Part shown: one piece after another, positions 8,178-27,554 of the stretch
Layout: every line of letters starts with the position of its first letter
How positions within the stretch are numbered: position 1 is the first letter of the stretch
Assembly: GCA_016928395.1 (NCBI GenBank)
Contig: JAFGKV010000096.1
Coordinates: 1-64,000 of the forward strand
Length of the DNA stretch: 64,000 nt
From: Candidatus Fermentibacterota bacterium
GTDB lineage: Bacteria; JAFGKV01
Reading direction: 5' to 3'
The notes under the pieces: generated by a model
What the model was told of the DNA's origin: nothing
Database searches by the model: none
The model's input: the letters and a program-made list of their open reading frames with translations, nothing else
Position numbers and translations under genes: made by a program

Positions 8178-9536
8178 CTATCGAGTGTTTCGGAGCGTCT
8201 CCTCCAGCGTCTCAACCAGCGACTTGATGCCGGCTCTGGTTTCCATGAGATGCCGTACCTGGGCACAGGCATGAATCACGGTAGAGTGATCACGCCCGCC
8301 GAAATAGCGCCCGATATCCGTGGTGGAAAGCGAGGTCAGACTTCGCGTGAGGTACATGGCGACCTGCCGCGCCTGAGCGATCTGCATGGTGCGGCGCTTC
8401 GAGGTGAGGGCACCGGCCTGAAGGCCCGTGGCGGAGGCGGTCGCCCGGATGATCTCCTCCACCGAGACTGTGGCCGGGGTGCTCTGGATGATGTCAGCGA
8501 GGATGCGCTTCGCTTCCGCCAGGTCGAGGTCTTTCCCTAATGCGGCATGGGCGGCAAGCCTCACGAGGCATCCTTCGATCTGGCGGACGTTCCTGCTGGC
8601 ATTGTTGATGATGAAGGTCATTACCTCGGGTGGGCAGGAGAGGCCCATCATGGCCGTCTTCTTGTACAGTATTGCCGCACGGGTCTCGAACTCGGGGGGT
8701 TGAATGTCGGCAATGAGGCCGGACTCGAAGCGGGAGATAAGACGTTGCTCCAACTTTGTCTCGTGGGGCGGGCGATCACTGGTGATGACGATCTGGCTCT
8801 TCTTCCTGTGCAGCGTGTTGAAAGTGTGGAAGAACTCCTCCTGCATGCTGTCCTTGCGCGCGATGAAGTGAATATCATCGATGAGCAGAAGTTTCAGCGA
8901 ACGGTAGCGCTTCCTGAACTCGTGTGGCGTGTTCTGGTAGATTGCGCTGACCAGGTCATTCGTGAAATCCTCGGAGCTGACGTAGCGAACCGTGGCGCCC
9001 GGGTGATGGCGCATGAGCAGGTGGCCAATGGCGTGGAGCAGGTGGGTCTTGCCCAGACCCGTGCCACCATAAATGAAGAGCGGGTTGTAGTAGGTCCCCG
9101 GGTTCTTTGCCACCGTGACGCATGCTGCGTGGGCCAACTCATTGCTCTTGCCCACGACAAAACTGTCAAAAGTGAAGGCGTCATTGAGGAACCCCACGGC
9201 GGGCGGCGGAAGCATGTCAGGTTCGGGAACAGCAGGGGTCTCGACAGGGGCCGTACCGGTGGTAAGCCGCAGCGGCACGCGGGCTCCAGCTACCACCTCC
9301 AAGGCCCGAAGGATGTCGTCCTTATTGTGCGACTCAATCCACTGCACATGGAAATCGCTGGGCAGAACGATGACCAACGCACCATTGTCATAGCCCGAAG
9401 GGTGGGCGGAAGAGAGCAGCGCGAATGCGCCTGGTCCCAGTGCTCCACCGCGATACAGGAGATCGACGCACGCGGCCCAGAGGCTCTCGGGGCTCTGTGT
9501 GGCTGAGGCCCGGGCAGTAGTCAACAGGTTATCCAC
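8178..9536 (-). CDS. dnaA: Chromosomal replication initiator protein DnaA
   Basis: YNPLFIYGGTGLGKTHL, LLIDDIHF, QEEFFHTFN, RLISRF arginine finger, NVRQIEG sensor II and domain IV FGGRDHSTVIHA. Divergent from rpmH. GTG start at 9536 chosen; the ORF is open to 9590. Confidence 0.97.
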   Translation of the reverse strand: MDNLLTTARASATQSPESLWAACVDLLYRGGALGPGAFALLSSAHPSGYDNGALVIVLPSDFHVQWIESHNKDDILRALEVVAGARVPLRLTTGTAPVETPAVPEPDMLPPPAVGFLNDAFTFDSFVVGKSNELAHAACVTVAKNPGTYYNPLFIYGGTGLGKTHLLHAIGHLLMRHHPGATVRYVSSEDFTNDLVSAIYQNTPHEFRKRYRSLKLLLIDDIHFIARKDSMQEEFFHTFNTLHRKKSQIVITSDRPPHETKLEQRLISRFESGLIADIQPPEFETRAAILYKKTAMMGLSCPPEVMTFIINNASRNVRQIEGCLVRLAAHAALGKDLDLAEAKRILADIIQSTPATVSVEEIIRATASATGLQAGALTSKRRTMQIAQARQVAMYLTRSLTSLSTTDIGRYFGGRDHSTVIHACAQVRHLMETRAGIKSLVETLEETLRNTR

Positions 9537-9885
9537 AGGTTCCCCCCCGCGGGATTCGGCCCAAGCGACTCCCCGCACGGGGCGGCACATGGCAGGCCTT
9601 GCGGTTTACGGCAATCGCTTAAGACTGAGGTTGAAGTCATTCGAGAAAACCCTTGAGAAACAAGGACATAAAGGGGATGATGATTGTGAAGATGCTGTGA
9701 GCGCGTCTCGACGATGCACCGGGATGAAGACCTTGAAGGGTCATGGAGTTCCGAAATCGCCATCACACTTGTCCACAGGTTGTACACAGCCTTTGTTGAC
9801 ATCTCCGCAGCCTTCGGTCACAGAGGTTTTGGCCGATGAGACGGTGCTATTCAGTAGCACGGCGGAGGGGATTCTGTCAACAGAA
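9518..9885. other. Candidate oriC / DnaA-box cluster in the dnaA-rpmH intergenic region
   Basis: TTATCCACA at 9529-9537, tandem TTGTCCACA 9769-9777 and TTGTACACA 9780-9788, and weaker GTCAACA-type boxes at 9518-9526, 9794-9802 (reverse) and 9874-9882. Canonical dnaA-rpmH location. Confidence 0.7.
9529..9537 (+). promoter_or_regulatory. Perfect DnaA box overlapping the proposed dnaA start codon
   Basis: TTATCCACA; its reverse complement T-GTG-GAT-AA contains the in-frame GTG. Confidence 0.8.
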
Positions 9886-9917
9886 AACACCGGCTCCTCC
9901 TCTGCAGCCGTTCAGCC

Positions 9918-9945
9918 TTGACCCCTCGCGTTTGCGCCCTAAGTT
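9918..9945 (+). promoter_or_regulatory. Putative sigma70 promoter for the rpmH operon
   Basis: TTGACC-N16-TAAGTT. Confidence 0.4.
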
Positions 9946-10104
9946 GCGGGGTCTACCATTCATACGGGTGGATCCCGCAAGTGGGTGGATTCAGGGCGCT
10001 TCCGTTCCTCCGCATCATGAACCGCGTTGAGGTTCCACTCCCGCCCCTTTGTGTGGGGCATCGCGCATCTGAGTCCACACGTATCTCCAGAACAGGGGTT
10101 GTAT

Positions 10105-10239
10105 ATGTCGTTCACCTTCAAGCCGAGTAATCGGCGCCGCAAGAATACCCACGGGTTCCGGCTGCGGATGAGCACCCGCTGGGGCCGGAAGATCGTAAAT
10201 GCTCGACGCGCACGGGGCCGGAGGCGGCTGGCTGGCTGA
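10105..10239 (+). CDS. rpmH: 50S ribosomal protein L34
   Basis: [42 protein letters not shown]; synteny. Confidence 0.97.
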
Positions 10240-10585
10240 CTCCCGCCTGCCACGATGGGAGAGACTCCATCGCCAACGAGACTTTGCCCAGCTCCGACAG
10301 CATGGTCGCCGCAAGGGAGGTCGGTATGTGGTGCTGCTGTGGGAGCCTTGGGATGCCGGCCGCGGCGTCGGATTCGCGGTGGGGCGGACGGTGGGGCCGG
10401 CCGTGGTGCGTTCCAAGGTTCGACGGCGTCTCCGGGAGGGCTACCGTCACCTCCGGGAATCGTTGAAGCCAGCCCATATGCTGTTTATCGCCCGTTCGGC
10501 GAGTTCTTCGGCAACAACGTCGGACATCGGCGCCGAGATGAGGCGCTTGTGCCACGAAGCAGGGCTATGGCATCCTCCGGAGTAG
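10232..10585 (+). CDS. rnpA: Ribonuclease P protein component
   Basis: [32 protein letters not shown] (RNR-motif variant) and synteny. Start uncertain (CTG 10232 or ATG 10199). Confidence 0.9.
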
Positions 10586-10806
10586 CTGCGGCCGTGGCGC
10601 TGGTAATGCTGCGTGGGTACCGCGCCATCATGTCCCCTCTTCTGCCGCCAACATGCCGTTTTGTGCCAACCTGTTCTGCCTACGCAATTGAGAGTGTGGA
10701 GCGGTACGGCGCTCGCCGGGGCCTTGCCTTGGCCGCGCGTCGCCTCCTTCGATGTCACCCCTGGGGGCGGGCTGGGTATGACCCGGTGCCCGCCGATGAG
10801 GAATAG
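10567..10806 (+). CDS. yidD: Membrane protein insertion efficiency factor YidD
   Basis: [18 protein letters not shown]...[17 protein letters not shown]. Confidence 0.95.
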
Positions 10807-10809
10807 TCT

Positions 10810-13350: not shown

Positions 13351-13407
13351 CAGGCGCCCCGTCACGGGACATTCCACCAGAATGGGGCCAGCGTCAGGAG
13401 CGTGACT

Positions 13408-14892
13408 ATGTGTGATACCGGGCGGATACATCAGGAGATAGAGGAGGGGATTTCGCGGGTCATGGATCAAGGCGCATCATATGCCGATGTGCGATTTCAC
13501 CCCGAGGACGTCTCCGAGTCTTTGGTCATGTATGACGGCAATCTGGAGAACAATGAGACCCTCCAGCAATCAGGTCTCGGCGTGCGCGTCCTCTGGGGAG
13601 GCGCGTGGGGCTTCGCGGCCTCCAGCGACCTGTGCCGCATCGGTGAGTGCTTCGCGCGCAGCCTGGCCAATGCGCGCACGGCAGCCTCTCTGGTGGCCCT
13701 GCCGCTGGACATGGGGCGCATGAGCCCCCACCGCAGCGCCTTCGCATCGCCCGTGGAGATCGATCCGTTTTCCGTCCCTGTGGGAGAACGCGTCGGCCTG
13801 CTCCGCCGCATGGACGAACAGATCAGTGAGGATTGGATCCAGCGGCGCATCGTGGCGGCCGCGACTCAGAAGAAGACAGTGCAGTTCTGGAACAGCGAGG
13901 GGACATTCGTCGAGAAGAAGCTCACCAATGTGTTCGGTACCATCATGATCATGGCGGCGGACAAAGACGGCCAGATGCAGCGCCGCAGTCATGACCTGTA
14001 CACCCGGGGTTCGGGTACCCGTGGCTGGGAGATGATCGCCGATGACGAATTGTTTGGTGGTCATGCCCAGCGGGTGAAGCGCGAACTGGCCGACCTGCTG
14101 CCCGCCGAGGCTCTGGATCACGGCCGGCGCTCGGTGATCCTACTCCCGGGCCAGGCCTGGCTTCAGGTGCACGAGACCATCGGCCATCCCCTGGAGCTGG
14201 ACAGGATCTTGGGATATGAGCTGTCCTACGCAGGCGGATCGCTGGTGACGCCCAATGACATCGGGACCCTGCGCTACGGCAGCGAGAAGCTCAACGTGAG
14301 TTCCTTCGGCGGCATCGCCAATTCGCCGGGCTCCTTCGGGTTCGACGATGACGGCACGCCGGAGCGGGACTATATGCTTATCGATAAGGGCATCTTGGTC
14401 AATGTCCTGTCCTCCAGGGCCATGGTCAACGAAGTGAACGAGGTCGCAGGCCGCCAAGTAGTAAGGGAGAGCGGCGGCGCGGCGCGGGCCAGCTCCTTCT
14501 ATCGCGCACCACTGGAGCGCATGACCAATGTGAACATCGTGCCGGGTGACGACGGGACGCTGGAGGATATCGTGGCATCCACTGAAGACGGTATCATCGT
14601 GGACACGCCGACCTCCTGGTCTATCGGCTCCAACCGGGAGCACTTCCATTTCGGGTGCGAGATCGCCTGGGAGGTCAAGAACGGCCGGCGGACCCGCGTG
14701 CTGCGGAATCCTACGTATCAGGGCCATACCGTCGAGTTCTACAACTCGCTGGATGCGGTGGGTGACGCCTCGACATGGCGCGTGCACCAAGTCGAGAACT
14801 GCGGCAAGGGCGAACCGAACCAGATCATGCAGCTTGGGCATGGAGTACCCGTTATCCGATTCCAAAACGTCGAGAGCGGGGAGAAGGAGTAG
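13408..14892 (+). CDS. tldD: TldD-family metalloprotease, catalytic subunit
   Basis: GLGVRVLWGGAWGFA, HETIGH metal motif, FGFDDDG, RMTN, CGKG. ATG lies 7 nt after AGGAG. Confidence 0.9.
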   Translation: MCDTGRIHQEIEEGISRVMDQGASYADVRFHPEDVSESLVMYDGNLENNETLQQSGLGVRVLWGGAWGFAASSDLCRIGECFARSLANARTAASLVALPLDMGRMSPHRSAFASPVEIDPFSVPVGERVGLLRRMDEQISEDWIQRRIVAAATQKKTVQFWNSEGTFVEKKLTNVFGTIMIMAADKDGQMQRRSHDLYTRGSGTRGWEMIADDELFGGHAQRVKRELADLLPAEALDHGRRSVILLPGQAWLQVHETIGHPLELDRILGYELSYAGGSLVTPNDIGTLRYGSEKLNVSSFGGIANSPGSFGFDDDGTPERDYMLIDKGILVNVLSSRAMVNEVNEVAGRQVVRESGGAARASSFYRAPLERMTNVNIVPGDDGTLEDIVASTEDGIIVDTPTSWSIGSNREHFHFGCEIAWEVKNGRRTRVLRNPTYQGHTVEFYNSLDAVGDASTWRVHQVENCGKGEPNQIMQLGHGVPVIRFQNVESGEKE

Positions 14893-14895
14893 GCC

Positions 14896-16266
14896 ATGTT
14901 GGACACGCACACCAGAGAAGTCCTCACGGGCGTCATCGATGATGCTCGCCACAAGGGCATTCAGGCCTCACTTCTCCTGCACCGGGAGCGAAGCCATCTC
15001 CTGCGGATCGGCAACAGCTCGGTGTCGCTGAACACCAGCGAGTCGCTGACCAGGCTCAAGGCCCGAGTGGTGGACGGTAGGCGCGAGGCAACTCACACGT
15101 ATCTGGGCGAGCTGGGCACCGACGACGCGCGGGAGACACTAGAGGCAGCCGTGGCCAAGGTCCGCGAGGCGCCCGAGCGTGATTTCGAGCCGATCTTGGA
15201 GCATGTGGACGAGACAGTGATACAGGAGGATCAATACGATCCGGCTCTGGCCGAGCTGGATGGGACGTCGAAAGCCGCAGGCTATGCGCGCATCATGCGG
15301 GAGATCGGCCCGTCGGTGACCTACTCAGGGGCCTGGTCCAGCGGTGCCACGGAAACCTACCTGCTCTCCACCGCTTCCGAAGCCGAGGCCTACCATCGCT
15401 GCACTGATCAGCAATTCTCCGTGGTGCTCAAACACCCGGCCGCCGAGTGGGAACTACGCACCGATGACACCGGATGGCGGGTCCTTGACTTCTCGGCAGA
15501 GCGGTCCATCGCGGAGATCCGACGTCTGCTCCCGGTCTACGAGAGCCGAGACGGCATCAAGATCGAGCCCGGGCAGTACACCGTGCTGTTTGGCGCCCAG
15601 GCTCTGGCCGAGATCCTCGGGATGGCGCTGTGGACGGGGCTCTACGGCCGTATGTACGAGGAGAAGCAGGGATGGACCGCGCATCACAAGGAGGGCGACC
15701 GGGTTTTCGGCGCCAACATCAGTATCACGGACGATCCTGAGGACGCGAATACCTTCCGCTATGGTTTCGATCTGGGCGGTATGCGCCGCGGGCGCTATCC
15801 GCTACTGGAGCACGGCCGCATCGCGGGCTTCATGTACGACATAGAGACCGCGGCCAAGTACAAGCGGCCCCTGACCGGGCACACGACCCAGACCATGAGC
15901 GTGGTGATGGACGGCGGCGACGGCGCGGCCGACCCTCTTGCCGCCGTTGCGGATCGTGCGCGGGTGCTCTGGATTCCGGCCCTGCATTACATGAACGTGC
16001 CCAGCAGAGCCAAGGGTCTCTTCACCGGCAGCTCGCGGTTCAGCGCGGTGGTGGTGGAGCGAGGCCGGATTGTCGCGCCGCTGTTCTCCAGCCGCGTCAC
16101 GGAGAGCTTCGAGAACGTGTTCAACAACCTGTCGGTGCTATCGCGTGAGCAAATCTCGGTGAATCTGTCCGATACCTACGGCCAACGGGCCCCGGTCGCC
16201 TGGAGCGTTCCCTCCTACGCCGTGGCCGACGGCATCCACATCACCGACACTGCCGATTCGTTCTAG
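14896..16266 (+). CDS. TldE/PmbA-like partner subunit of TldD
   Basis: Follows tldD directly. IEPGQYTVLF, ISITDDP and GFDLGG are present, and there is no HExxxH motif. Confidence 0.8.
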   Translation: MLDTHTREVLTGVIDDARHKGIQASLLLHRERSHLLRIGNSSVSLNTSESLTRLKARVVDGRREATHTYLGELGTDDARETLEAAVAKVREAPERDFEPILEHVDETVIQEDQYDPALAELDGTSKAAGYARIMREIGPSVTYSGAWSSGATETYLLSTASEAEAYHRCTDQQFSVVLKHPAAEWELRTDDTGWRVLDFSAERSIAEIRRLLPVYESRDGIKIEPGQYTVLFGAQALAEILGMALWTGLYGRMYEEKQGWTAHHKEGDRVFGANISITDDPEDANTFRYGFDLGGMRRGRYPLLEHGRIAGFMYDIETAAKYKRPLTGHTTQTMSVVMDGGDGAADPLAAVADRARVLWIPALHYMNVPSRAKGLFTGSSRFSAVVVERGRIVAPLFSSRVTESFENVFNNLSVLSREQISVNLSDTYGQRAPVAWSVPSYAVADGIHITDTADSF

Positions 16267-18021: not shown

Positions 18022-20271
18022 TTATCCCGGTGTTGCCGTGGCCTCGTCGACAAACTCGGGGTACAGTTTCTTCATGCATTCCGGACAGATTCCGTGGGTG
18101 AACTCGGCCTCGGATCGTTGATGGATGTATGTTTCCACCTTCTCCCAGTAACCGGTGTCGTCACGAATGCGTTTGCAGCTTGAGCAGATGGGAAGGAGGC
18201 CGCTCAGTGTCTTGACCTTCGCCAGGGCGGTTCTCAGCTCCCCTATCAGCCGCTCGCGTTCCTGCTCCGCCGTCTTTCGCTCCGAGATGTCCCACACGTA
18301 GGATCGAGTCCCGACGACCTTGTTGCCCTCCCTGAGCTCTATGGCATCCACCTCCAGGTGGATGGGGAGACGGTCCTTGCGGATCCCCATGAACTCGTAG
18401 TGGGAGAAAGGCGTCATTCCCTGTACACGTCTTCTGTGCTGGGTCAGCACCCGGTCGAGTTCCCGTGGATGCACAATGGTCTCGATGGTCTGGCGGCTCA
18501 TCTCTTCGCGGGAGTAACCGAACATCTGGGCAAAGGTGTCGTTGAAGTAGCGGAACGTCCCCTTCGGGTCGTCGATGAGGATTCCGATGCGTGCCCTTTC
18601 CACCAGGTCACGGAAGCGTTCCTCCGACCCGCGGAGTGCCTCGGTCACGTCCCACCGTTCTACCCGGCGGGCAATCCGTCCGGCGACCTCTTCCAGCAAC
18701 CTGATCTCCTCCCGGAGGAAGGGGTCGCCGGCGCCAGGTGGCGGTTCAACCACGTAGCAGACTTCCACCCGGCCTTCAGTGGTCCCCGCTACCACCAGGG
18801 GAGACTCCATGCGCCATGCCGATCGCCGGAAGTCGGGCGTAGCCGCGGTCTCATCTCGGAGCGAAATACACGCAGCCGCGATCTCGGGAAATTGCATGCC
18901 GGCAGGGATTGCCTCCACCGCCGCGAACAGCAGGGCCGCCAGGGATCCTTCCGCGCGGCCGAGCGCAGTTGACACCGCGGAGAGGCAGTTGAGTTCCTTC
19001 ACACGCTCGGTGAGTTCAACAGCGAGACGTTCCCGCTCCTGCTCCGCCCGCTTGAGGTCCGTGATATCCCGGATCACGCCGTTCATGCGCCGCACGACCC
19101 CATCGGCATCGAACTCCAAATCGATGCGGTCGCTGACCCATCGCGTCCTCCCGTCTCTGGTGATAATCCGGTAGTCGACCTGGTGGGGCCCAGGATCGCC
19201 AGGTTTCCGGAAGCACGCGTAGAGGAAGCGATAGACCCGGGCGGCGTCTTCGGGATGAATGACCCGGCGCGTGTGGCGAAGTGGGTTTCCGGTCAGGTAA
19301 TCCCTGGGGTAGCCTGTCAGCCGTTCAAAAGCAGGGCTGATGAAGTCGTAGCGGTTGGTGGGGACGTCATACCGGTAGATGACATCGCTGACGATCTCAA
19401 CGAATCTACGAAGTGACTCCTCGGCCTTGACCAGTGCCTCACGGGCGGCCCTCGGCGCAGTGATATCCTCGGCGGTCCCCTCGATGAATCGGGTCGTGCC
19501 GTCCGCGGCGAGTACTATGCGTGCGCTCTCTCGAACCCAGACTGTACGGCCATCAAGACAGCGCCACTGGGTTTCGAAGGCGTGGACGATTCCGTCCTGA
19601 TGCAGTAGCTCGAGAAAGCACATCCGCTCCCCGGGATCGGCGTAGCCCCCAGCCGCGCTCTGCGTCACGAGATCCTCCGGACAGGAGTACCCCAGTATCT
19701 CGCTGAGGACCCTATTCACGTAGAGGATCCGACCTTCTAACGTCGTGCGGTAGAGGCCCACGGGAAGATTGTCCGCCAACTGGCGGAATCGATCTTCCGC
19801 GACCCCCAGCGCGCGGGCGGCACGGACCTCGTCGGACACGTCTTCAGAGACGACGACAATCTCTCCAGACGGAAGGGGGTATACCCGATGCTTCACCCAG
19901 TGATCAACGGAAACGCTGGCGTAGCAAGCCGGCCCGTGAACGCGTGGGTCTTTAGCTTTGTGAACCTCCCGCAGCACGGCCAACAGCCCCGATCCGGCCA
20001 CGGCGGGGAGCACTTCGGTCAGACGCCTGCCGACTGCGTCTTCCCTGGGGATCCCGCTGATGCGCTGCCCAGCGGGGTTGATGCTCTTGATGAGGAAGTC
20101 GTCGCCGTCATCGACGGCAGCATAGATGGTAACACCGCCACTCATGTGCTCAATGAGTGCCCGGTAGGCAGCTACCTCGCGCTCCAAGGCCTCATCGCGA
20201 GTACCAGCATCTCTTTCCCGCGTCGTTGGCCGCGCTCCAGGGCTGCCCGCGCGGTTTCGAGGAGACTTCAT
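18022..20271 (-). CDS. Multi-PAS/GAF-like sensor protein with C-terminal Cys/His-rich domain, no kinase
   Basis: Four PAS/PAC modules (EDVS, EDIT, RDIT, WDIS). C-terminus LPICSSCKRIRDDTGYW...FTHGICPEC. Confidence 0.85.
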   Translation of the reverse strand: MKSPRNRAGSPGARPTTRERDAGTRDEALEREVAAYRALIEHMSGGVTIYAAVDDGDDFLIKSINPAGQRISGIPREDAVGRRLTEVLPAVAGSGLLAVLREVHKAKDPRVHGPACYASVSVDHWVKHRVYPLPSGEIVVVSEDVSDEVRAARALGVAEDRFRQLADNLPVGLYRTTLEGRILYVNRVLSEILGYSCPEDLVTQSAAGGYADPGERMCFLELLHQDGIVHAFETQWRCLDGRTVWVRESARIVLAADGTTRFIEGTAEDITAPRAAREALVKAEESLRRFVEIVSDVIYRYDVPTNRYDFISPAFERLTGYPRDYLTGNPLRHTRRVIHPEDAARVYRFLYACFRKPGDPGPHQVDYRIITRDGRTRWVSDRIDLEFDADGVVRRMNGVIRDITDLKRAEQERERLAVELTERVKELNCLSAVSTALGRAEGSLAALLFAAVEAIPAGMQFPEIAAACISLRDETAATPDFRRSAWRMESPLVVAGTTEGRVEVCYVVEPPPGAGDPFLREEIRLLEEVAGRIARRVERWDVTEALRGSEERFRDLVERARIGILIDDPKGTFRYFNDTFAQMFGYSREEMSRQTIETIVHPRELDRVLTQHRRRVQGMTPFSHYEFMGIRKDRLPIHLEVDAIELREGNKVVGTRSYVWDISERKTAEQERERLIGELRTALAKVKTLSGLLPICSSCKRIRDDTGYWEKVETYIHQRSEAEFTHGICPECMKKLYPEFVDEATATPG

Positions 20272-20488
20272 CCTCCGTTATCCTCCGCTCTTCGGCTGGG
20301 CACCAGCGTAAGACGACGCGGGTGCGAGACTCTGGCCACACACATCCCGCGGACGCACCGGGGCCAGGGGAGCCCCCGCCACGACGATCAGGGAGGGGAT
20401 CCTTGACGCGGGCCTGAAAGGCACTGACCTTATGCCCCGCGCGTTAGTACGGTACGATTCAGGCCTCCGCATTAGTGAACGGGGTCCC

Positions 20489-21661
20489 ATGGCTTCCGAG
20501 CACGTTGAATCAGAATCGATTCTGGTGGTCGACGACGAACCGCAGATCCGCTCGCTTCTGGGGCGCTTCCTGCGCAGGCGGGGCTCCACGGTACTGGAGG
20601 CGGGCTCCGGCGCAGAAGGACTGGCGCTCTTCCAGAAGCACTCACCGGCTGTGGTGATATCGGACATACGCATGCCAGGCATGGGTGGTTTCGACCTACT
20701 TAGGGCCGTCCGGAAGATCGACGCCGAGGTAGAGGTGGTCCTTATCACGGGGTATGGCGAGATCTCCGACGCGGTGGAAGCCATCCGCACTGGCGCTTCA
20801 GACTTCATCGCCAAACCCTTTGATCTTACCTTGGTGGACCATGCGGTGGACAGCTGCCTGGAACGAAGGCGCTACAAGGCGATGGCGCGGGGCTATACGC
20901 GCCGGCTCGAGGAGGAGGTGACCCGGCGAACGGAGGAGTTGGCACACGCGAACAGGGAACTGGAGAAGCTGGGCAAGACCCGGGAGGACTTCCTGGCCCT
21001 CATCTCCCACGAACTGCGGACGCCCCTGGCCGGCATGGGACTCGCAGAGCTGGCCTTTGAAGAGATAGACTCGTTGACGCGAGGACAGGTGCAGGAGATG
21101 CTCTCGGGGATCATTGAATCCTTCCGGCGCCTGCATGCCTTCTCGGAGCGAGCGCTGCTCTACTCGCGCCTCGCATCGGGCGGGCCGGTTCGGCGCAGGG
21201 AGGGGGTCGATTTCTCGGAGCTCGTTCACGACGAAGTCTCCCGTATCGCTAAGACCGCCGCCGACGCCGACATCTCCGTCCGTTGGGCCCCTTTCGCTGG
21301 GTCGATGACCACGAATGGCGATCCGGAACTCCTCCGATTCGTGATTCGCGCCCTTCTGGACAATGCCGTGAAACACAATCGGCGTGGAGGCTCGGCAGAA
21401 GTACACCTTGAACCCCGTGACGATGGGTTCGAGTTCTCCATCACGGATACCGGCGTAGGCATTCCTGGGGAGGCGATTGACAGGGTTTTCCGGCCACTGG
21501 ATTCGCCCGACATCCTGCACCGCCGCTCAGGAACCTCCCTCTCGCTAGCCATAAGCAGGTTGATCAGTCAACAGCACGGTATGCAGCTCTCATGCAGCAG
21601 CGAGGGCACCGGCAAGGGGGCGACATTCACTCTCACCTGTCCAGCACACCAATCGACATAG
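20489..21661 (+). CDS. Receiver - histidine kinase
   Basis: Receiver (VVDD, SDIRMP, KPF), SHELRTPL, DNAVKH and DTGVGI. G2 box altered to GTSLSL. Confidence 0.88.
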   Translation: MASEHVESESILVVDDEPQIRSLLGRFLRRRGSTVLEAGSGAEGLALFQKHSPAVVISDIRMPGMGGFDLLRAVRKIDAEVEVVLITGYGEISDAVEAIRTGASDFIAKPFDLTLVDHAVDSCLERRRYKAMARGYTRRLEEEVTRRTEELAHANRELEKLGKTREDFLALISHELRTPLAGMGLAELAFEEIDSLTRGQVQEMLSGIIESFRRLHAFSERALLYSRLASGGPVRRREGVDFSELVHDEVSRIAKTAADADISVRWAPFAGSMTTNGDPELLRFVIRALLDNAVKHNRRGGSAEVHLEPRDDGFEFSITDTGVGIPGEAIDRVFRPLDSPDILHRRSGTSLSLAISRLISQQHGMQLSCSSEGTGKGATFTLTCPAHQST

Positions 21662-21671
21662 CTCCATAGAA

Positions 21672-23480
21672 TCACGATCCCGGTGATTCGGGATCGCCTT
21701 CCAGGGCATAGCGAAGCCAAGTTCTGGCGTTCGAAGGCGTGACATCCGATCCCACAATCACGGGGACCTCGCCGGGAACCCGGAAGAGGCGGCGCATGCT
21801 GTTGGCCAGGAGGCATTTCGCAGAGGAATCAGCGCGATGTTCCGCGCCGGCGAACAGCACCACCACAGCCACAGCGACACCTCGAGGAACGGAAGCAACG
21901 AGAAGTCGCGCATCGATGATCCTCGACCCCGCGCTGTCAAACACCAGCAGATAGAGCGGCACCTGGCTCCCAGCCACAGCCCACGAAAGATCGTCTCCAA
22001 TGTTCCAACGATTGGTTCCCACGATTATCCACTCCGGTTCCGGCGCCTCAGGGTGGAGCAGGCAAGCCCATCTCTCGCCTTCAGGGATTGCCGACACTTG
22101 CCCCCTGATGCCGGCGATGGCATCCATGGTGTCGATTACCTGCGCGGGAGATGTGCCAAGAACGATGATGGGGGCTGTCTTCGGCGAGGGAACGATGGCA
22201 GCGATCTCCTCCGGCGTACCCCAGGTGCTGGCAAGGTCACCGCTCTTGATGAACACCTTGACGAAGTCGTGAAGCTCCCCCGGCGGCGCGGGCGGCTCGA
22301 GGGTCCTCCGCGGCGGCTCCCCGGGGACCGCATCGTCGCGAATCGCCATGATCACCTTGTCAACCACGGCCCGGTCAAGACTGATCGAACCAAGAGTGTG
22401 CATCGCGACCAGCTTCTTGACCGCGCCCTCCAGAGTTCGGACATCGCTGTCCAGAGCCGCGGCAAGGTAATCCAAGAGGTCGAAAGCGATGGGCCATCCG
22501 CTCTGCAATGCCTTGGTCTTCAAGATCGTCGCCCGGAGTGCGGCGTCAGGGGCGTCAACGCTCATCACCAATCCGGCCGCAAGACCCGTGGTAATCTCGT
22601 TGATGAGGGTTGAGACCTCCTCGGGGCGGCGGTCGCCGGAGATCACGATCTGCTTCTGCTGGCGGTACATCTCTGAGAACACCCCCGCGGCGACGGTCTG
22701 CAAGCTCGATGATACCGCCAGGAACTGGATGTCATCGATGAAGAGGGCATCACACTCCATGTAGCCCGCTCTCAGCCTCTCCACAGTCCTGTGCTCGTAG
22801 GCATCTATGATCTGCTGGCTGAATACTTCGGATGTGAGGTAAAGAATCCGTGTCTGGGAATTCCTGGAATACAGCTCGTTGGCCAGCGCGCACATGAGAT
22901 GGGTCTTGCCACGGCCCGGACCGCCGTACAAGAACAACGGGTTGTGCCGCCGGCCGAGGTTGTCCGCTACCGCCTTGGCGGCTTCCACGGCCCGGGAATT
23001 TCCCTTGCCCACCACGAAGGTACCGAAGGAATACCGTGACAGGCGCTCCAGGGCCGAAGCGTAGAAGGGGCCTTCAGTAGAAGGCTGGGTCATTGCGCGG
23101 AACTGGGCTCGTCGGCGCAGCAGTGCTCTGACACGTGCCAGGAACAGCTCAACATTGAAGGGCTTGACTAAGTAGTCGTCGGCGCCCAGTTCCAGACCTT
23201 TGATCTGGTCTTCTTCTTCCGCCTTGCCGCTCAGGATCATCAGCGGTGTGTGACCTACCACGGGATCTGACCGTAGCCGCCGGACCAGCTCAAAACCGTC
23301 AAGCCTGGGCATCATCACGTCAGTGATCACCGCGTCGGGATGCTCTCCCTGTACCGCGTACCAGCCCTTCTCGCCATCCTCGGCCGTCACCACCTCGAAG
23401 TGCTCTCGCTCAAGGACGCTGCTCAAGAGCCGCAGGATATGGGGGTCGTCATCAACTACGAGTATGCGATCGGCGGGCAC
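21672..23480 (-). CDS. Response-regulator receiver fused to a DnaA-type AAA+ domain and a C-terminal degenerate GTPase-like domain
   Basis: Receiver with D54 (TDVMMP). YSFGTFVVGKGN, NPLFLYGGPGRGKTHL, FIDDIQF, ISGDRRP and DVRTLEGA align with DnaA domain III. No RDHSTV domain IV. GTG start with AAGGAG. Confidence 0.88.
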   Translation of the reverse strand: MPADRILVVDDDPHILRLLSSVLEREHFEVVTAEDGEKGWYAVQGEHPDAVITDVMMPRLDGFELVRRLRSDPVVGHTPLMILSGKAEEEDQIKGLELGADDYLVKPFNVELFLARVRALLRRRAQFRAMTQPSTEGPFYASALERLSRYSFGTFVVGKGNSRAVEAAKAVADNLGRRHNPLFLYGGPGRGKTHLMCALANELYSRNSQTRILYLTSEVFSQQIIDAYEHRTVERLRAGYMECDALFIDDIQFLAVSSSLQTVAAGVFSEMYRQQKQIVISGDRRPEEVSTLINEITTGLAAGLVMSVDAPDAALRATILKTKALQSGWPIAFDLLDYLAAALDSDVRTLEGAVKKLVAMHTLGSISLDRAVVDKVIMAIRDDAVPGEPPRRTLEPPAPPGELHDFVKVFIKSGDLASTWGTPEEIAAIVPSPKTAPIIVLGTSPAQVIDTMDAIAGIRGQVSAIPEGERWACLLHPEAPEPEWIIVGTNRWNIGDDLSWAVAGSQVPLYLLVFDSAGSRIIDARLLVASVPRGVAVAVVVLFAGAEHRADSSAKCLLANSMRRLFRVPGEVPVIVGSDVTPSNARTWLRYALEGDPESPGS

Positions 23481-23666: not shown

Positions 23667-26600
23667 TCATGCCCCTTCCTTGCTCGACAACCCTGCCGAT
23701 CTCATGGCCGCGATGACCTCACCGAGCTGAGCCTCTGCGGCTGCGACCAGCGAGTCCGCCCGCCGGCCGTCTCCCGCGGCGCATGCCTGTTCGATTCGGG
23801 AAGCCGTGGCCATGATCGAGGCGGCGCCCACGGAGCCTGCCGCGCCCCTGAGGGTGTGCGCTGTGCGTGCCGCAGCGCGCAGGTCGGATCGACTCAGCGC
23901 CTCTCTCATCGCCGAGATCCGCCGAGGGACATCGTCGACGAACATTGCAGCAAGCTCGTTCGCCAGTGCCTCATCATCCATCGTGCGTTCCATCAGGCCC
24001 GTCAGATCGAACACGAGAGAGGGGGTGTCCGGCGGAGGTGGGATCCCTGCGGCTGCGACGTTGTCAGTTCGATTGACCCAGCGCTCGACGGCGGCGCGGA
24101 GTGCGCCGGGGGTGACCGGCTTGGCAATGTAGTCGTTCATCCCCGCCTGCAGGCATTGTTGCCGGTCGCTCTCCATGGCGTACGCGGTCATCGCTATGAT
24201 GGGGATGTCGTGCTTTAGAACAGAAGATGAAGGATCACGAATCGCCCGGCTCGCTTCATACCCATCCATCTGTGGCATCTGGCAGTCCATCAGCACAAGG
24301 TCATATGGGGCCGTCTCCAGTGCCCGGAGGGCCTCAAGACCGTTGGCGGCGACATCCACCCTGCAGCCGAGCTTCTCGAGAACTGCCGACGCCACTCGCT
24401 GGCTGGTGGCGTTGTCCTCAGCGACCAAGATGCGGCCCCCGCGTCGATCGGGTGCGTGGCTGCCGGCAGCAGACGCGACAGTGCCGTCAGGGCAGACGCC
24501 AAGCACCATCTCAAGGCTTTGGCGTAACTGCACCTGTCTGATCGGCTTCGTCAGGAAGGCGGAGAACTCCCCGGCCACCGCACGCGCATCCATCGTGACC
24601 TTCCCCAGCGACGAGAGCATGATCAGCATCGTGGCGCTGATCCGCGGATCTTCCTTGATTCGCTTCCCCAGCTCGAGCCCGTCCATCCCCGGCATCTGCA
24701 TGTCGATGAGCGCCACGGTGAACGGCTGTCCCTCCGTCTGGGCCTGCGTCAGGGCCTCGAGCGCTGCCGGGCCGTCGGCCACTTCGGCATGCGTGCACCC
24801 CCAGGATGCCAGAAGCACGGCCAGGAGCCGCCGATTGGTCTGATTGTCATCCACGACGAGAATGCGTGCACCCGCGATGTCGCCTGCGGGTGCCTCAGCG
24901 GCGGTGGGCGACGCGGTGGACTTCTCGAACACCACTGTGAACCAAAACACTGAACCCTGCCCCGGGTTGCTGGTCACGCCGATGTCCCCGCCCATCATCT
25001 CAGCGAGTCGTTTCGAGATGGACAACCCCAGGCCCGTGCCGCCGAACCGCCGCGTGGTCGAGGTGTCGGCCTGTCCGAACGGGCGGAACAGGAGCGGCAA
25101 CGCATCCGACGATATGCCGATGCCAGTGTCCTTGACCTCGAAACGAAGTGTCACCGAGGAAGGGGTCTCACTATCCACGTCGGCGTGTATCGATACTTCT
25201 CCCCGATCGGTGAACTTGACCGCATTGCCCGCCAAGTTGAGCAGGATTTGCCGGAGCCGCCCCGCGTCTCCCCGCACTATGCGCGGCACATCGGGCTCCA
25301 CCATGCTGATGAGTTCTATTCCCTTCCCGTGCGCATCGACCGCCAAGAGGGCCGCAGTCTCGTCCAGGACCGCATGGATATCGAAGTCCAGTACTTCCAG
25401 GTCCATCCGCCCGGCTTCGATCTTGGAGAAGTCAAGAACGTCATTGATGATGGCAAGCAGGCTTTCGCCGCTGGATCGTACGATCTCCGCGTACTCTCGC
25501 TGCTCGGGAGAGAGTGGAGTGTCGAGCAACACGCCTGCCATGCCGATCACGCCGTTCATGGGAGTGCGGATTTCGTGGCTCATGTTGGCAAGGAACGCGC
25601 TCTTGGCCTTGCTGGCCTCCTCCGCCATCACCGCCAGTTCGTTGGCGCGATCGCTGGCCCGTTCAAGTCTCTCATTGGTCACTTCCAGCTCGCGATTCGC
25701 CATGCGGAGCCGAATCTCCGCCCTCCTGCGCTCAGTGATGTCCGTGAGGATGCCGACCAGCCGCCTGACTACGCCATCGGCATCCACAATCGGGTTCAAT
25801 GCGGCGTGCCACGTCATGTCGCGACCATCGGGCCGCAGATAGGCCGACTCGAAGGAAACCTGCTCGCCCCGCGCGGCGCGCGTGAGCTCTGCCTCTATCA
25901 CCTCGCGGGTTGGTTCAGGCCACAGCTTTGGAAAGGCTTGGCCGAGGATGTCGTCCGTCGCCCACCCAAGGGCTGCGGCCCCGTTACGGTTGACCATAAG
26001 AAAGCGGCCGGTCGGATCGAGCAGCACCACGCAGTTCGGGGAGCCTTCCACGAGCCCTCGGTACCGTCTCTCCGAATCCCCGATCACAGTCGAGGTCTCC
26101 TGGGAGCGCTGCTGGACCGCGAAGAAGACCAGAATCAGTGCGGCGACCAGAAGCGTGATGAGAAGCGGGCCCATGCGACTCATGGCGATCACCTGCGCCC
26201 AGCGGGATGCATCTACATCCTGTCCGAGCACCCCCACAACCCGGCCCGAACGGTTCTGGACGATGGGCACGAGCCCGCTTACCCACGTGCCCCACCGGTC
26301 GGTGGCAGGCCCTTCGACGAACTCCTCACCGGTTCGGAAGACCTCTACCAACTCGGCGCTGGCTTCCTCGTATGTTTGGCCGGGGGGAGAGTAGTCCTCC
26401 GAACTCTCGGGCTCCGAATCGGCAAGGAAGATCACCTGGCGGTCACGCATCCCCATCAGGTAGGCGAACCGGCAGTCCGGGAAGGCCCTCCTCACGGCGA
26501 CGAGCTGCCGCTTCAGCCTCCCGTAGTCGGGACTGACGAGGTCGGCTTCGGTACCGGCCAACCGCAGGATCGAGTCAGCGTCTATGGCGGCGGCGGCCGT

Positions 26601-27410
26601 TCGGGTCACGGTCAGGATCACCCGGCGCTGGCCGTGGTCCGCCGCCCGTCCCGACTCCTGCGCGAGGATCCACCCAAGACCGAGGGTGATGACGAGGCCG
26701 CCCACGGCCACGCGGCTGATGCGTCCGGCGGCGCGGGCGGCCCGGTCGCCAAACGCGAGCCTGCGGAGCAGCCGGTACCGCCGGCAGAGCGCCCCAGCGA
26801 TCGCAAGCGCGAAGACCGCCCGCGCGAGTTGGATCGAGATTCCCGCGAGGGTGCCCGCGTCCGGGAGCGGGACAGCCATGGGCGGTCCCGCCACCGCGGC
26901 GAGGCCAAGCCCCGCCATCGCCACCGCCGCGATGCCGCTGCCCCGCGCCTCGTGGGGCAGCCCCAGGACGGGCGCACGCCACAGCAGCCATGCAGCGGCC
27001 AGCGTGGACACTGCGCCGAGGGAGTAGCGAATCGCGGCGTCAGGGTCGGCGGCCCCCATGCCGACGCTGCCGCATGCCAAAGCCAGCAGGACAAGATGAA
27101 CCCAGAAGCCCGGGCCGCGCTTCACGACGGAGGCGATCCCCGACCGGGCGAACTCCGCCAGGCACAGAAACGACACTGCATTCAGAAGTGGTCCAACAAC
27201 CGCCGACACGGGGGAGGGTTCGAGACTGGGCGTCAAGAGGCCAAGCCATTCGTGGAGCGCCTGAGAGAACCCGAAGAGTGCGCACCACTTCCATGGGAGG
27301 TGACTATCCGTTCGCGCCAGCGACCGTCCGATGACGCCGAGGCATGCAAATGCCAGCCCTGAGAGCAAAAGCAGGAAGTCCGTTTGGTGAGAGAGGAAGT
27401 CAACAATCAT
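23667..27410 (-). CDS. Unorthodox hybrid histidine kinase: multi-TM region, extracytoplasmic sensor, PAS, HisKA, HATPase, two receivers, Hpt
   Basis: FLANMSHEIRTPMNG, NLAGNAVKF, GGTGLGL, IDMQMP, MDCQMP and Hpt AHTLRGAAGSVGA. Start MIVDF chosen; the ORF is open to 27479. Confidence 0.93.
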   Translation of the reverse strand: MIVDFLSHQTDFLLLLSGLAFACLGVIGRSLARTDSHLPWKWCALFGFSQALHEWLGLLTPSLEPSPVSAVVGPLLNAVSFLCLAEFARSGIASVVKRGPGFWVHLVLLALACGSVGMGAADPDAAIRYSLGAVSTLAAAWLLWRAPVLGLPHEARGSGIAAVAMAGLGLAAVAGPPMAVPLPDAGTLAGISIQLARAVFALAIAGALCRRYRLLRRLAFGDRAARAAGRISRVAVGGLVITLGLGWILAQESGRAADHGQRRVILTVTRTAAAAIDADSILRLAGTEADLVSPDYGRLKRQLVAVRRAFPDCRFAYLMGMRDRQVIFLADSEPESSEDYSPPGQTYEEASAELVEVFRTGEEFVEGPATDRWGTWVSGLVPIVQNRSGRVVGVLGQDVDASRWAQVIAMSRMGPLLITLLVAALILVFFAVQQRSQETSTVIGDSERRYRGLVEGSPNCVVLLDPTGRFLMVNRNGAAALGWATDDILGQAFPKLWPEPTREVIEAELTRAARGEQVSFESAYLRPDGRDMTWHAALNPIVDADGVVRRLVGILTDITERRRAEIRLRMANRELEVTNERLERASDRANELAVMAEEASKAKSAFLANMSHEIRTPMNGVIGMAGVLLDTPLSPEQREYAEIVRSSGESLLAIINDVLDFSKIEAGRMDLEVLDFDIHAVLDETAALLAVDAHGKGIELISMVEPDVPRIVRGDAGRLRQILLNLAGNAVKFTDRGEVSIHADVDSETPSSVTLRFEVKDTGIGISSDALPLLFRPFGQADTSTTRRFGGTGLGLSISKRLAEMMGGDIGVTSNPGQGSVFWFTVVFEKSTASPTAAEAPAGDIAGARILVVDDNQTNRRLLAVLLASWGCTHAEVADGPAALEALTQAQTEGQPFTVALIDMQMPGMDGLELGKRIKEDPRISATMLIMLSSLGKVTMDARAVAGEFSAFLTKPIRQVQLRQSLEMVLGVCPDGTVASAAGSHAPDRRGGRILVAEDNATSQRVASAVLEKLGCRVDVAANGLEALRALETAPYDLVLMDCQMPQMDGYEASRAIRDPSSSVLKHDIPIIAMTAYAMESDRQQCLQAGMNDYIAKPVTPGALRAAVERWVNRTDNVAAAGIPPPPDTPSLVFDLTGLMERTMDDEALANELAAMFVDDVPRRISAMREALSRSDLRAAARTAHTLRGAAGSVGAASIMATASRIEQACAAGDGRRADSLVAAAEAQLGEVIAAMRSAGLSSKEGA

Positions 27411-27554
27411 GGGAGACCCCGCCACCTGACGTGCATGCCTCACTAGGGCACTCTGGGCGTGAGCCCTGGCCCATCCCATCGGCTACCAAGGAGACGGAAG
27501 CCAGTTCCATCGGCATTGCTCCCCACCGGTTGTGTTGCGCCATGACAGCCGGGG

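Follow-up and report, generated by a model that had tools for sequence, protein, structure and literature searches.

The window considered here is a stretch of 64,000 nucleotides (nt) of contig JAFGKV010000096.1 from an uncultured sediment bacterium (Candidatus Fermentibacterota; assembly GCA_016928395.1). It carries the gene of P0001, a genuine and conserved response regulator with a DnaA-type AAA+ effector domain. The open reading frame comprises 602 codons without interruption. The gene and its parts are located as follows; residue counts refer to a family of 47 proteins, 46 database homologs and P0001 itself.

21672..23480, minus strand: whole gene of P0001, 602 amino acids (aa), GTG start; receiver domain (REC), DnaA-type AAA+ module, linker and GTPase-like domain in this order
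23130..23465, minus strand: receiver domain, residues 6-117, OmpR/PhoB-like, complete in D10, D11, D54, S84, Y103 and K106 (Pfam PF00072 and NCBIfam)
23319..23321, minus strand: codon of Asp54, the predicted phosphorylation site; D in 46/47 family members, E in one
22344..23048, minus strand: DnaA domain III AAA+ module, residues 145-379; Walker A K192/T193, Walker B D249/D250, sensor I D283 and sensor II R348 intact, each in 47/47
22584..22598, minus strand: box VII segment, residues 295-299; E295 and G299 replace R281 and R285 (Arg finger) of E. coli DnaA
22278..22328, minus strand: disordered linker rich in Pro and Glu, residues 385-401; predicted local distance difference test score (pLDDT) <50 in the full-length model, gappy in alignments, of different length among homologs
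21696..22238, minus strand: C-terminal domain, residues ~415-595, ~180 aa; conserved in paralogs and relatives, predicted small-GTPase-like fold, no P-loop

Pfam assigns Response_reg to residues 6-117 (E 4.9e-30) and Bac_DnaA to residues 149-306 (E 1.6e-43) of P0001. The NCBIfam model of DnaA (TIGR00362) covers residues 145-379 with its profile positions 103-337 of 437, a complete domain III with the lid included. The score of 228.7 bits lies below the DnaA equivalog threshold (cutoff 343.9). Neither Bac_DnaA_C (PF08299) nor DnaA_N (PF11638) gave a Pfam match in P0001, and the TIGR00362 match ends before domain IV. A first-pass annotation of this DNA had described a complete receiver (DD, D54, S, K) joined to DnaA domain III, with DnaA domains I and IV absent. 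Pfam and the conservation within the family agree with it on the receiver, all motifs that it named in the second domain were found and are in accordance with Bac_DnaA and TIGR00362, and profile coverage and Pfam confirm the two absences. Its overall proposal has thus been retained in part: the conserved response regulator with a DnaA-type AAA+ effector stands, the link to the initiator filament, taken up below, is not supported.

The receiver is, judged by its residues, catalytically complete. Conservation in the family amounts to 47/47 for D10, 46/47 for D11 and D54, 47/47 for S/T84 and Y103, and 46/47 for K106. D12 is also conserved, and all of these positions are kept in at least 45/47 members. 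The best NCBIfam receiver matches are PhoB, CseB, PleD, RpaB, OmpR and MtrA. A winged-helix output (Trans_reg_C) was not matched in P0001; the PhoB, OmpR and MtrA models match the receiver part only (residues 4-136).

A word-indexed search of 5.8 billion proteins yielded 46 further REC+Bac_DnaA proteins of 586-665 aa, aligned over at least 97% of the query with 41-62% identity; the architecture was taken from a precomputed Pfam column. All homologs come from uncultured bacteria; the three that carry names are labelled Eisenbacteria or Fermentibacteria. Among the best 150 matches of an exhaustive search against 50%-identity clusters, four clusters had the full architecture. These 150 were largely multi-receiver proteins, so that more distant REC+DnaA fusions may be missed. 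The same search returned short REC+DnaA clusters (P0139, P0178, P0188), giant MshEN-DnaA proteins and tandem proteins with two DnaA domains. In the phylum as defined by GTDB, 3/3 species genomes examined have several copies, orthologs as well as paralogs. The fusion of REC with DnaA domain III is real, conserved and, as far as the searches reach, lineage-restricted.

An assembly chimera or annotation artefact, conceivable in a fragmented genome of 343 contigs, was ruled out by the 47 full-length homologs (NCBI, JGI, ENA, Logan), the three phylum genomes and conserved kinase neighbours; its probability is negligible. The first-pass annotation had named a one-off chimera or misassembly without homologs as the outcome that would overturn it, and the same homologs and genomes show that this is not so. 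Its suggestion to search for REC+Bac_DnaA architectures and their linkage to dnaA led to the family of 47, and to a linkage within one genus only. A look-up of sequencing runs found the complete stretch only in the probable source sample, and no RNA run was among those containing it. Four runs compared with the stretch gave short matches only, mostly at 23156-23198, where a conserved receiver motif lies, and these came from other organisms. From a separate study, two DNA contigs (~250 nt) match the stretch with 3-4 differences. The promoter scan found no sigma-70-like promoter for the P0001 gene. The terminator scan gave three terminator-like matches, all within the gene and not meaningful.

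The metagenome-assembled genome (4.79 Mb, 343 contigs, 94% complete) holds 14 Bac_DnaA matches. They belong to six REC+DnaA proteins, four MshEN+DnaA proteins (one with two matches), one true DnaA, one IstB and one unscanned fragment. MshEN is a receptor domain for cyclic di-GMP (c-di-GMP) (PMC5013675). The REC- and MshEN-linked paralogs are dispersed over eight contigs. Four of the REC+DnaA paralogs are long, with the C-terminal domain, and two are short, one of these with a degenerate receiver. This short paralog (contig C311, L015:5271-6785, plus strand) has a pseudo-receiver in which His replaces the phospho-acceptor Asp, Ile replaces the conserved Lys and the acidic pair is changed.

Phylogenetic relations were assessed from 118 domain III rows, comprising 30 of 63 true-DnaA rows (every second one) and all other rows. 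The quick IQ-TREE reconstruction (LG+G4, support from the Shimodaira-Hasegawa-like approximate likelihood ratio test, SH-aLRT) is unrooted and has several long branches. REC-linked domains form a single clade (SH-aLRT 95), and so does the long family (98). True DnaAs, the tandem proteins and the large MshEN-DnaA group are placed on the opposite side (support 93). The four long paralogs of the genome fall into four separate supported subclades, all of which also contain proteins of other assemblies; this points to old duplications that were retained. The tree indicates that the REC fusion arose once and that these duplications followed.

Two further groups of DnaA-core proteins were encountered. 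Contig C299 (L009:8940-18339, plus strand) carries three MshEN+Bac_DnaA genes in series and a gene with MshEN only. The three proteins comprise 983 aa (two DnaA domains and DUF4398), 423 aa and at least 1308 aa, the last reaching the contig end. The gene of a type IV prepilin peptidase (A24; L009:8062-8838) immediately precedes the cluster, and a gene for a SprA_N protein is near. The largest MshEN-DnaA protein has retained the Lys and the two arginines of box VII, and its domain III is 51% identical to that of the true DnaA. From their domains, the C299 proteins are candidates for c-di-GMP-gated DnaA-core proteins. Five proteins from the cluster search (P0124, P0126, P0127, P0130, P0133) of 585-697 aa contain a tandem pair of Bac_DnaA domains but lack DnaA_C; the label of one reads 'AAA family ATPase [Gemmatimonadota]'. 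They look like a separate, apparently uncharacterised DnaA-core duplication family outside the P0001 lineage.

The residues of the AAA+ module were compared in an alignment of E. coli DnaA with the 47 family members and 17 true DnaAs. For each E. coli position, the residues found are given below for the family and then for the true DnaAs.

K178, Walker A: K in 47/47; K in 17/17
D235 and D236, Walker B: D in 47/47; D in 17/17
D269, sensor I: D in 47/47; D in 17/17
R334, sensor II: R in 47/47; R in 17/17
R227, AID-1: R in 0/47; R in 16/17
K243, conserved Lys of the segment contacting single-stranded DNA (ssDNA), beside the B motif: Ser in 47/47; K in 16/17, R in 1/17
R245, B motif (ssDNA): S in 43/47, R in 0/47; R in 5/17
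R281, box VII: E in 41/47, G in 6/47, R in 0/47; R in 17/17
R285, Arg finger: R in 7/47 (G in P0001); R in 17/17
L290, AID-2: L in 40/47; L in 12/17, M in 5/17

R227 and L290 of DnaA belong to the AID motifs, V211 and R245 to the ssDNA-binding H and B motifs (PMC10325909). R285 touches the ATP of the flanking protomer and upholds head-to-tail oligomers (PMC10325909). The position of V211 stays hydrophobic in the family (I225 in P0001). The seven members with a retained Arg finger form one subclade, which includes the C20 paralog of the genome. Because the checked Walker A, Walker B, sensor I and sensor II residues are invariant among members only 41-62% identical to P0001, nucleotide binding appears to be under selection. 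The same alignment shows no such selection on the residues that build the initiator filament and capture ssDNA. The profile scores point to DnaA proper as the origin of the module, and not to Hda, DnaC or IstB.

The C-terminal domain had been overlooked in the first-pass annotation, as had the exchanged arginines of box VII and the many paralogs of the genome. Pfam has no family for it in 12/12 copies scanned. Folded alone (AlphaFold2, 12-row alignment), it reached a pLDDT of 83.6 and a predicted template modelling score (pTM) of 0.84. VIA-align found RagD as best match (Z 10.1, root-mean-square deviation 4.0 Å, 148 residues), followed by Arf6, Rheb, Sar1, Ras and Rab, and gave Z 8.5 against the pseudoGTPase domain of p190RhoGAP; the range of Z 8.5-10.1 spans 113-148 aligned residues for matches of the small-GTPase type. 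Foldseek listed small GTPases with E 6e-5 to 6e-4 and template modelling scores of about 0.46-0.5. A sequence profile gave a weak match to the EngA/Der G-domain (E 0.01). A language-model atlas placed the domain nearest to bacterial ATP_bind_1/Arf/Ras clusters (0.93), which serves as a lead only. The likeness to the G-domain fold is moderate and consistent, and not decisive. The P-loop GxxxxGK[ST] is found in 0/47 family members (last 200 residues) and the G4 motif [NT]KxD in 1/47. Three arginines of the domain, R525, R563 and R586, show a conservation of at least 90%. From model and motifs, the domain is probably GTPase-like without nucleotide binding.

A profile search of the genome (29,692 open frames) detected the C-terminal domain in the four long REC-DnaA proteins only, at E <=1e-69, the next best hit having E 0.14. 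The word-indexed search for free-standing relatives among shorter proteins gave one protein of 156 aa with 75% identity, probably a fragment. Scanning 185,579 species genomes with a single peptide pattern, by which absence elsewhere is not proven, revealed the domain in two sister metagenome-assembled genomes only, labelled Eisenbacteria and Fermentibacteria. Within the searches run, it appears confined to the P0001-type architecture.

P0001 is flanked by two kinase genes, and the window contains a canonical dnaA:

23667..27479, minus strand: hybrid histidine kinase PAS-HisKA-HATPase-REC-REC-Hpt, 1270 aa (Pfam); 186 bp upstream of P0001, same strand
20432..21661, plus strand: convergent REC-HisKA-HATPase kinase (Pfam), ending 10 bp from the P0001 stop; possible second partner
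8178..9590, minus strand: canonical DnaA, 470 aa, Bac_DnaA and Bac_DnaA_C, the only one of the genome; regarded as a comparator only

By adjacency, the Hpt domain of the hybrid kinase may be the phosphodonor of P0001. The ortholog in a sister species of the same genus (L018) keeps both kinase neighbours. In 3/3 genomes, the C218-type paralog and the HisKA-HATPase gene upstream of it overlap. Downstream of the C78-type paralog lies a kinase in 2/2, which in genome G000 is cNMP-binding. The C20-type paralog has no adjoining kinase in 2/2. Altogether, a kinase adjoins 7/12 long-form loci, in a pattern uniform within subclades. Replication genes were not found among the scanned neighbours of the paralogs, which besides kinases are housekeeping or envelope genes.

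A signalling island extends from 16438 to 62788. It comprises a PAS-REC protein, a triple-PAS protein and the kinases flanking P0001, and continues with PAS/GAF/CHASE4/SBP sensor kinases and REC-PAS proteins on the plus strand. All large frames scanned between 28087 and 53372 (10/10) encode sensor kinases or REC-PAS proteins, and more kinase-like catalytic regions lie at ~58.7 and 62.1 kb. The triple-PAS protein (18022-20271, minus strand) ends in a Cys-rich tail (CxxC...CxxC) without a Pfam family, which may be a zinc-binding output module to judge from the cysteines. A gene pair for TldD/PmbA-type metallopeptidases (13402-16266, plus strand) is located between jag and the island.

The true dnaA adjoins yidC and jag. 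Its distance to P0001, given as about 12 kb in the first-pass annotation, was measured as 12.1 kb. The domains III of the two proteins share 33% identity over 231 residues with two gaps. Within the genome, only the P0001 copy is near dnaA. Nine unrelated predicted genes lie between them, and the linkage is seen within one genus only, in P0001 and its ortholog at 12-13 kb. Some features of the dnaA region were recorded beside this. The canonical DnaA has no Pfam DnaA_N match at E <=1e-4 though its N-terminal 130 residues are present, and it sits on a long terminal branch of the domain III tree (0.78 versus a median of 0.19). Between the divergent dnaA and yidC lies a 1.2-kb gap (9591-10809) with no open reading frame of at least 200 aa. 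Near-consensus DnaA-box matches occur at 9769 and 10809, and a perfect box at 9529 within the 5' end of dnaA. The cumulative GC skew has its minimum near 2-8 kb. The gap is a candidate origin region, but the box counts of the window are not above chance: a scan with a 9-mer consensus (<=1 mismatch) found six matches versus 4.62 expected, a number reached in 36/100 shuffles, and hence no enrichment.

P0001 may be a response regulator at the end of a multistep phosphorelay, one whose output is a repurposed DnaA domain III, a general ATP-dependent signalling module and not a dedicated replication regulator; we give this reading about an even chance. The Hpt domain of the adjoining hybrid kinase would transfer phosphate to Asp54 of P0001. 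Phosphorylated receivers would then dimerise, as in OmpR/PhoB-family regulators, where phosphorylation-driven receiver dimerisation is the usual mechanism. Dimerisation would alter the self-association or the conformation of the ATP-bound AAA+ module, and this change might expose or cluster the C-terminal pseudo-GTPase domain for a partner. Separate paralogs would be wired to separate kinases, the DnaA core being an output with interchangeable sensors. It is regarded as a portable output module because the same core also occurs behind MshEN domains.

Several points weigh against this reading. The full-length model of P0001 has a pTM of 0.54, too low to fix the arrangement of the domains to each other; for this score, the domain packing in that model was dropped as evidence. 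The step from phosphorylation to dimerisation is carried over from what is known of the OmpR/PhoB family. No kinase adjoins 5/12 long-form loci (two of the C20 type and three of genome G002, one of them cut by the contig end). The AAA+ module stays clearly DnaA-like, with 228.7 bits for TIGR00362 versus 85 bits for Hda, the AID-2 Leu in 40/47 members and the hydrophobic V211 position. An ATP site without an Arg finger would also fit a one-sided DnaA partner.

Such a partner is the core of an alternative in which P0001 acts as a signal-gated cap or modulator at one end of a DnaA oligomer, accepting the finger of DnaA, donating none and holding no DNA, with phosphorylation setting the timing. 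The derivation of the module from DnaA proper (228.7 versus 85 bits for Hda; Bac_DnaA 149 versus IstB 32 bits), the Walker motifs and both sensors in 47/47, the AID-2 Leu in 40/47 and the distance of 12-13 kb from dnaA in P0001 and its same-genus ortholog agree with it. This linkage, however, is confined to one genus and interrupted by the nine unrelated genes. A genome has ten paralogs behind two types of input domain; a single one is near dnaA, and replication genes adjoin none of them. The AID-1 Arg and R281 of box VII are gone in 47/47, and the conserved C-terminal domain is left without a role. A cap is considered unlikely because of the many dispersed paralogs, the lost AID-1 Arg and R281 and the unexplained extra domain. 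A complex prediction of true DnaA domain III with the P0001 AAA+ module and two ATP scored 0.01 versus a mark of 0.32, without controls, and favours neither side. The direct link from a phosphorelay to the initiator filament, as proposed in the first-pass annotation, is not supported in view of the dispersed paralogs, their neighbours and the replacement of R227, R281, R285 and the Lys; a role of P0001 in replication is possible but without support. Extended to the whole set, about ten REC- or MshEN-gated DnaA-III paralogs would exert multi-input control of replication, finger-less and DNA-blind mimics at the end of the DnaA oligomer on oriC setting the initiation threshold. This proposal is rather improbable.

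The paralogs might instead associate with each other. Finger-less proteins of the P0001 type would form hetero-oligomers with finger-bearing ones, the C20-type REC protein or the large MshEN-DnaA protein, and integrate phosphorelay and c-di-GMP signals, possibly for pilus, secretion or motility functions. The Arg finger in 7/47 members of one subclade, the C20 paralog among them, would fit this, as would the large MshEN-DnaA protein with both arginines, the Lys and 51% identity to the true DnaA domain III, and the MshEN-DnaA cluster beside prepilin peptidase and the SprA_N protein. Genes of the REC and MshEN types are, however, not co-localised, and the link to pili or gliding is an adjacency on one contig; this arrangement is distinctly doubtful. 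Loss of the trans-acting catalytic arginines and the kinase-rich island around P0001 are compatible with a decayed pseudo-enzyme, in which the nucleotide is structural or absent and the protein is a phospho-dependent adaptor or a phosphate sink for the surrounding kinases. Such a scaffold is very unlikely in view of the Walker and sensor residues, kept in 47/47 despite 41-62% identity to P0001.

As a response regulator, P0001 has a previously undescribed output, as far as the literature search reached. Many output domains are known for response regulators; one of the DnaA clade of AAA+ proteins was not found in the literature searched. No paper on REC+DnaA or MshEN+DnaA was found. DnaA is nowhere mentioned in the main text of PMC5013675 on MshEN, whose supplementary architecture tables could list such fusions. 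The first-pass annotation had likewise known of no characterised example. That the initiator ATPase core has been duplicated to about ten copies and coupled to two sensory inputs, phosphorylation as well as c-di-GMP, characterises it as a modular output for signalling. In the P0001 family, evolution has taken DnaA domain III apart, keeping the ATP pocket and removing the filament arginines and the ssDNA-contact Lys. A family that contacts DnaA would stand as the first case of initiator mimicry governed by a two-component system, and one that does not would show that unrelated signalling can take over the initiator fold. Multi-input replication control, if true, would be protein-level initiator mimicry, a mechanism not known for any bacterium. 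The family also defines a new pseudo-GTPase-like domain.

Among known systems, domain III of DnaA is closest in kind to the P0001 AAA+ module, which was aligned to B. subtilis DnaA and the DnaA of the window with just two gaps over ~230 residues and has Walker A/B and sensor I/II of the same kind. P0001 differs from DnaA in the lack of domains I, II and IV, in the N-terminal receiver and the C-terminal GTPase-like domain, and in the replacement of R227, K243, R281 and R285. Hda/HdaA resembles P0001 as a paralog of DnaA domain III only. E. coli Hda acts on DnaA by a contact of AAA+ to AAA+ and donates an Arg finger, by which the hydrolysis of DnaA-bound ATP is stimulated. P0001 has no such finger and reaches 85 bits with the Hda model (TIGR03420, cutoff 194.8), whereas Hda has neither a receiver nor the C-terminal domain. 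Membership in DnaC/IstB (PF01695) is not indicated, IstB_IS21 scoring 32 bits versus 149 bits for Bac_DnaA on the same residues. The predicted fold of the C-terminal domain moderately resembles that of bacterial Ras/Arf-like GTPases (ATP_bind_1, MglA-type) and of the pG1 domain of p190RhoGAP. It differs from small GTPases by the missing G1 P-loop, the rarity of [NT]KxD (1/47), the absence of a Pfam match and, in the searches run, of a free-standing form.

CtrA, MtrA and Spo0A are two-component regulators tied to replication control. They bind origin DNA via helix-turn-helix (HTH) or winged-helix domains, unlike P0001, which has no DNA-binding domain. Sigma54_activat (PF00158) is not among the nine Pfam families matched at E <=0.01, which places P0001 outside the NtrC family of REC, sigma-54 AAA+ and HTH proteins. 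Its AAA+ module belongs to another clade, an HTH is absent and the receiver is OmpR/PhoB-like. In its predicted mode of action P0001 is nevertheless most alike to the NtrC family, with a receiver gating the assembly of an AAA+ module.

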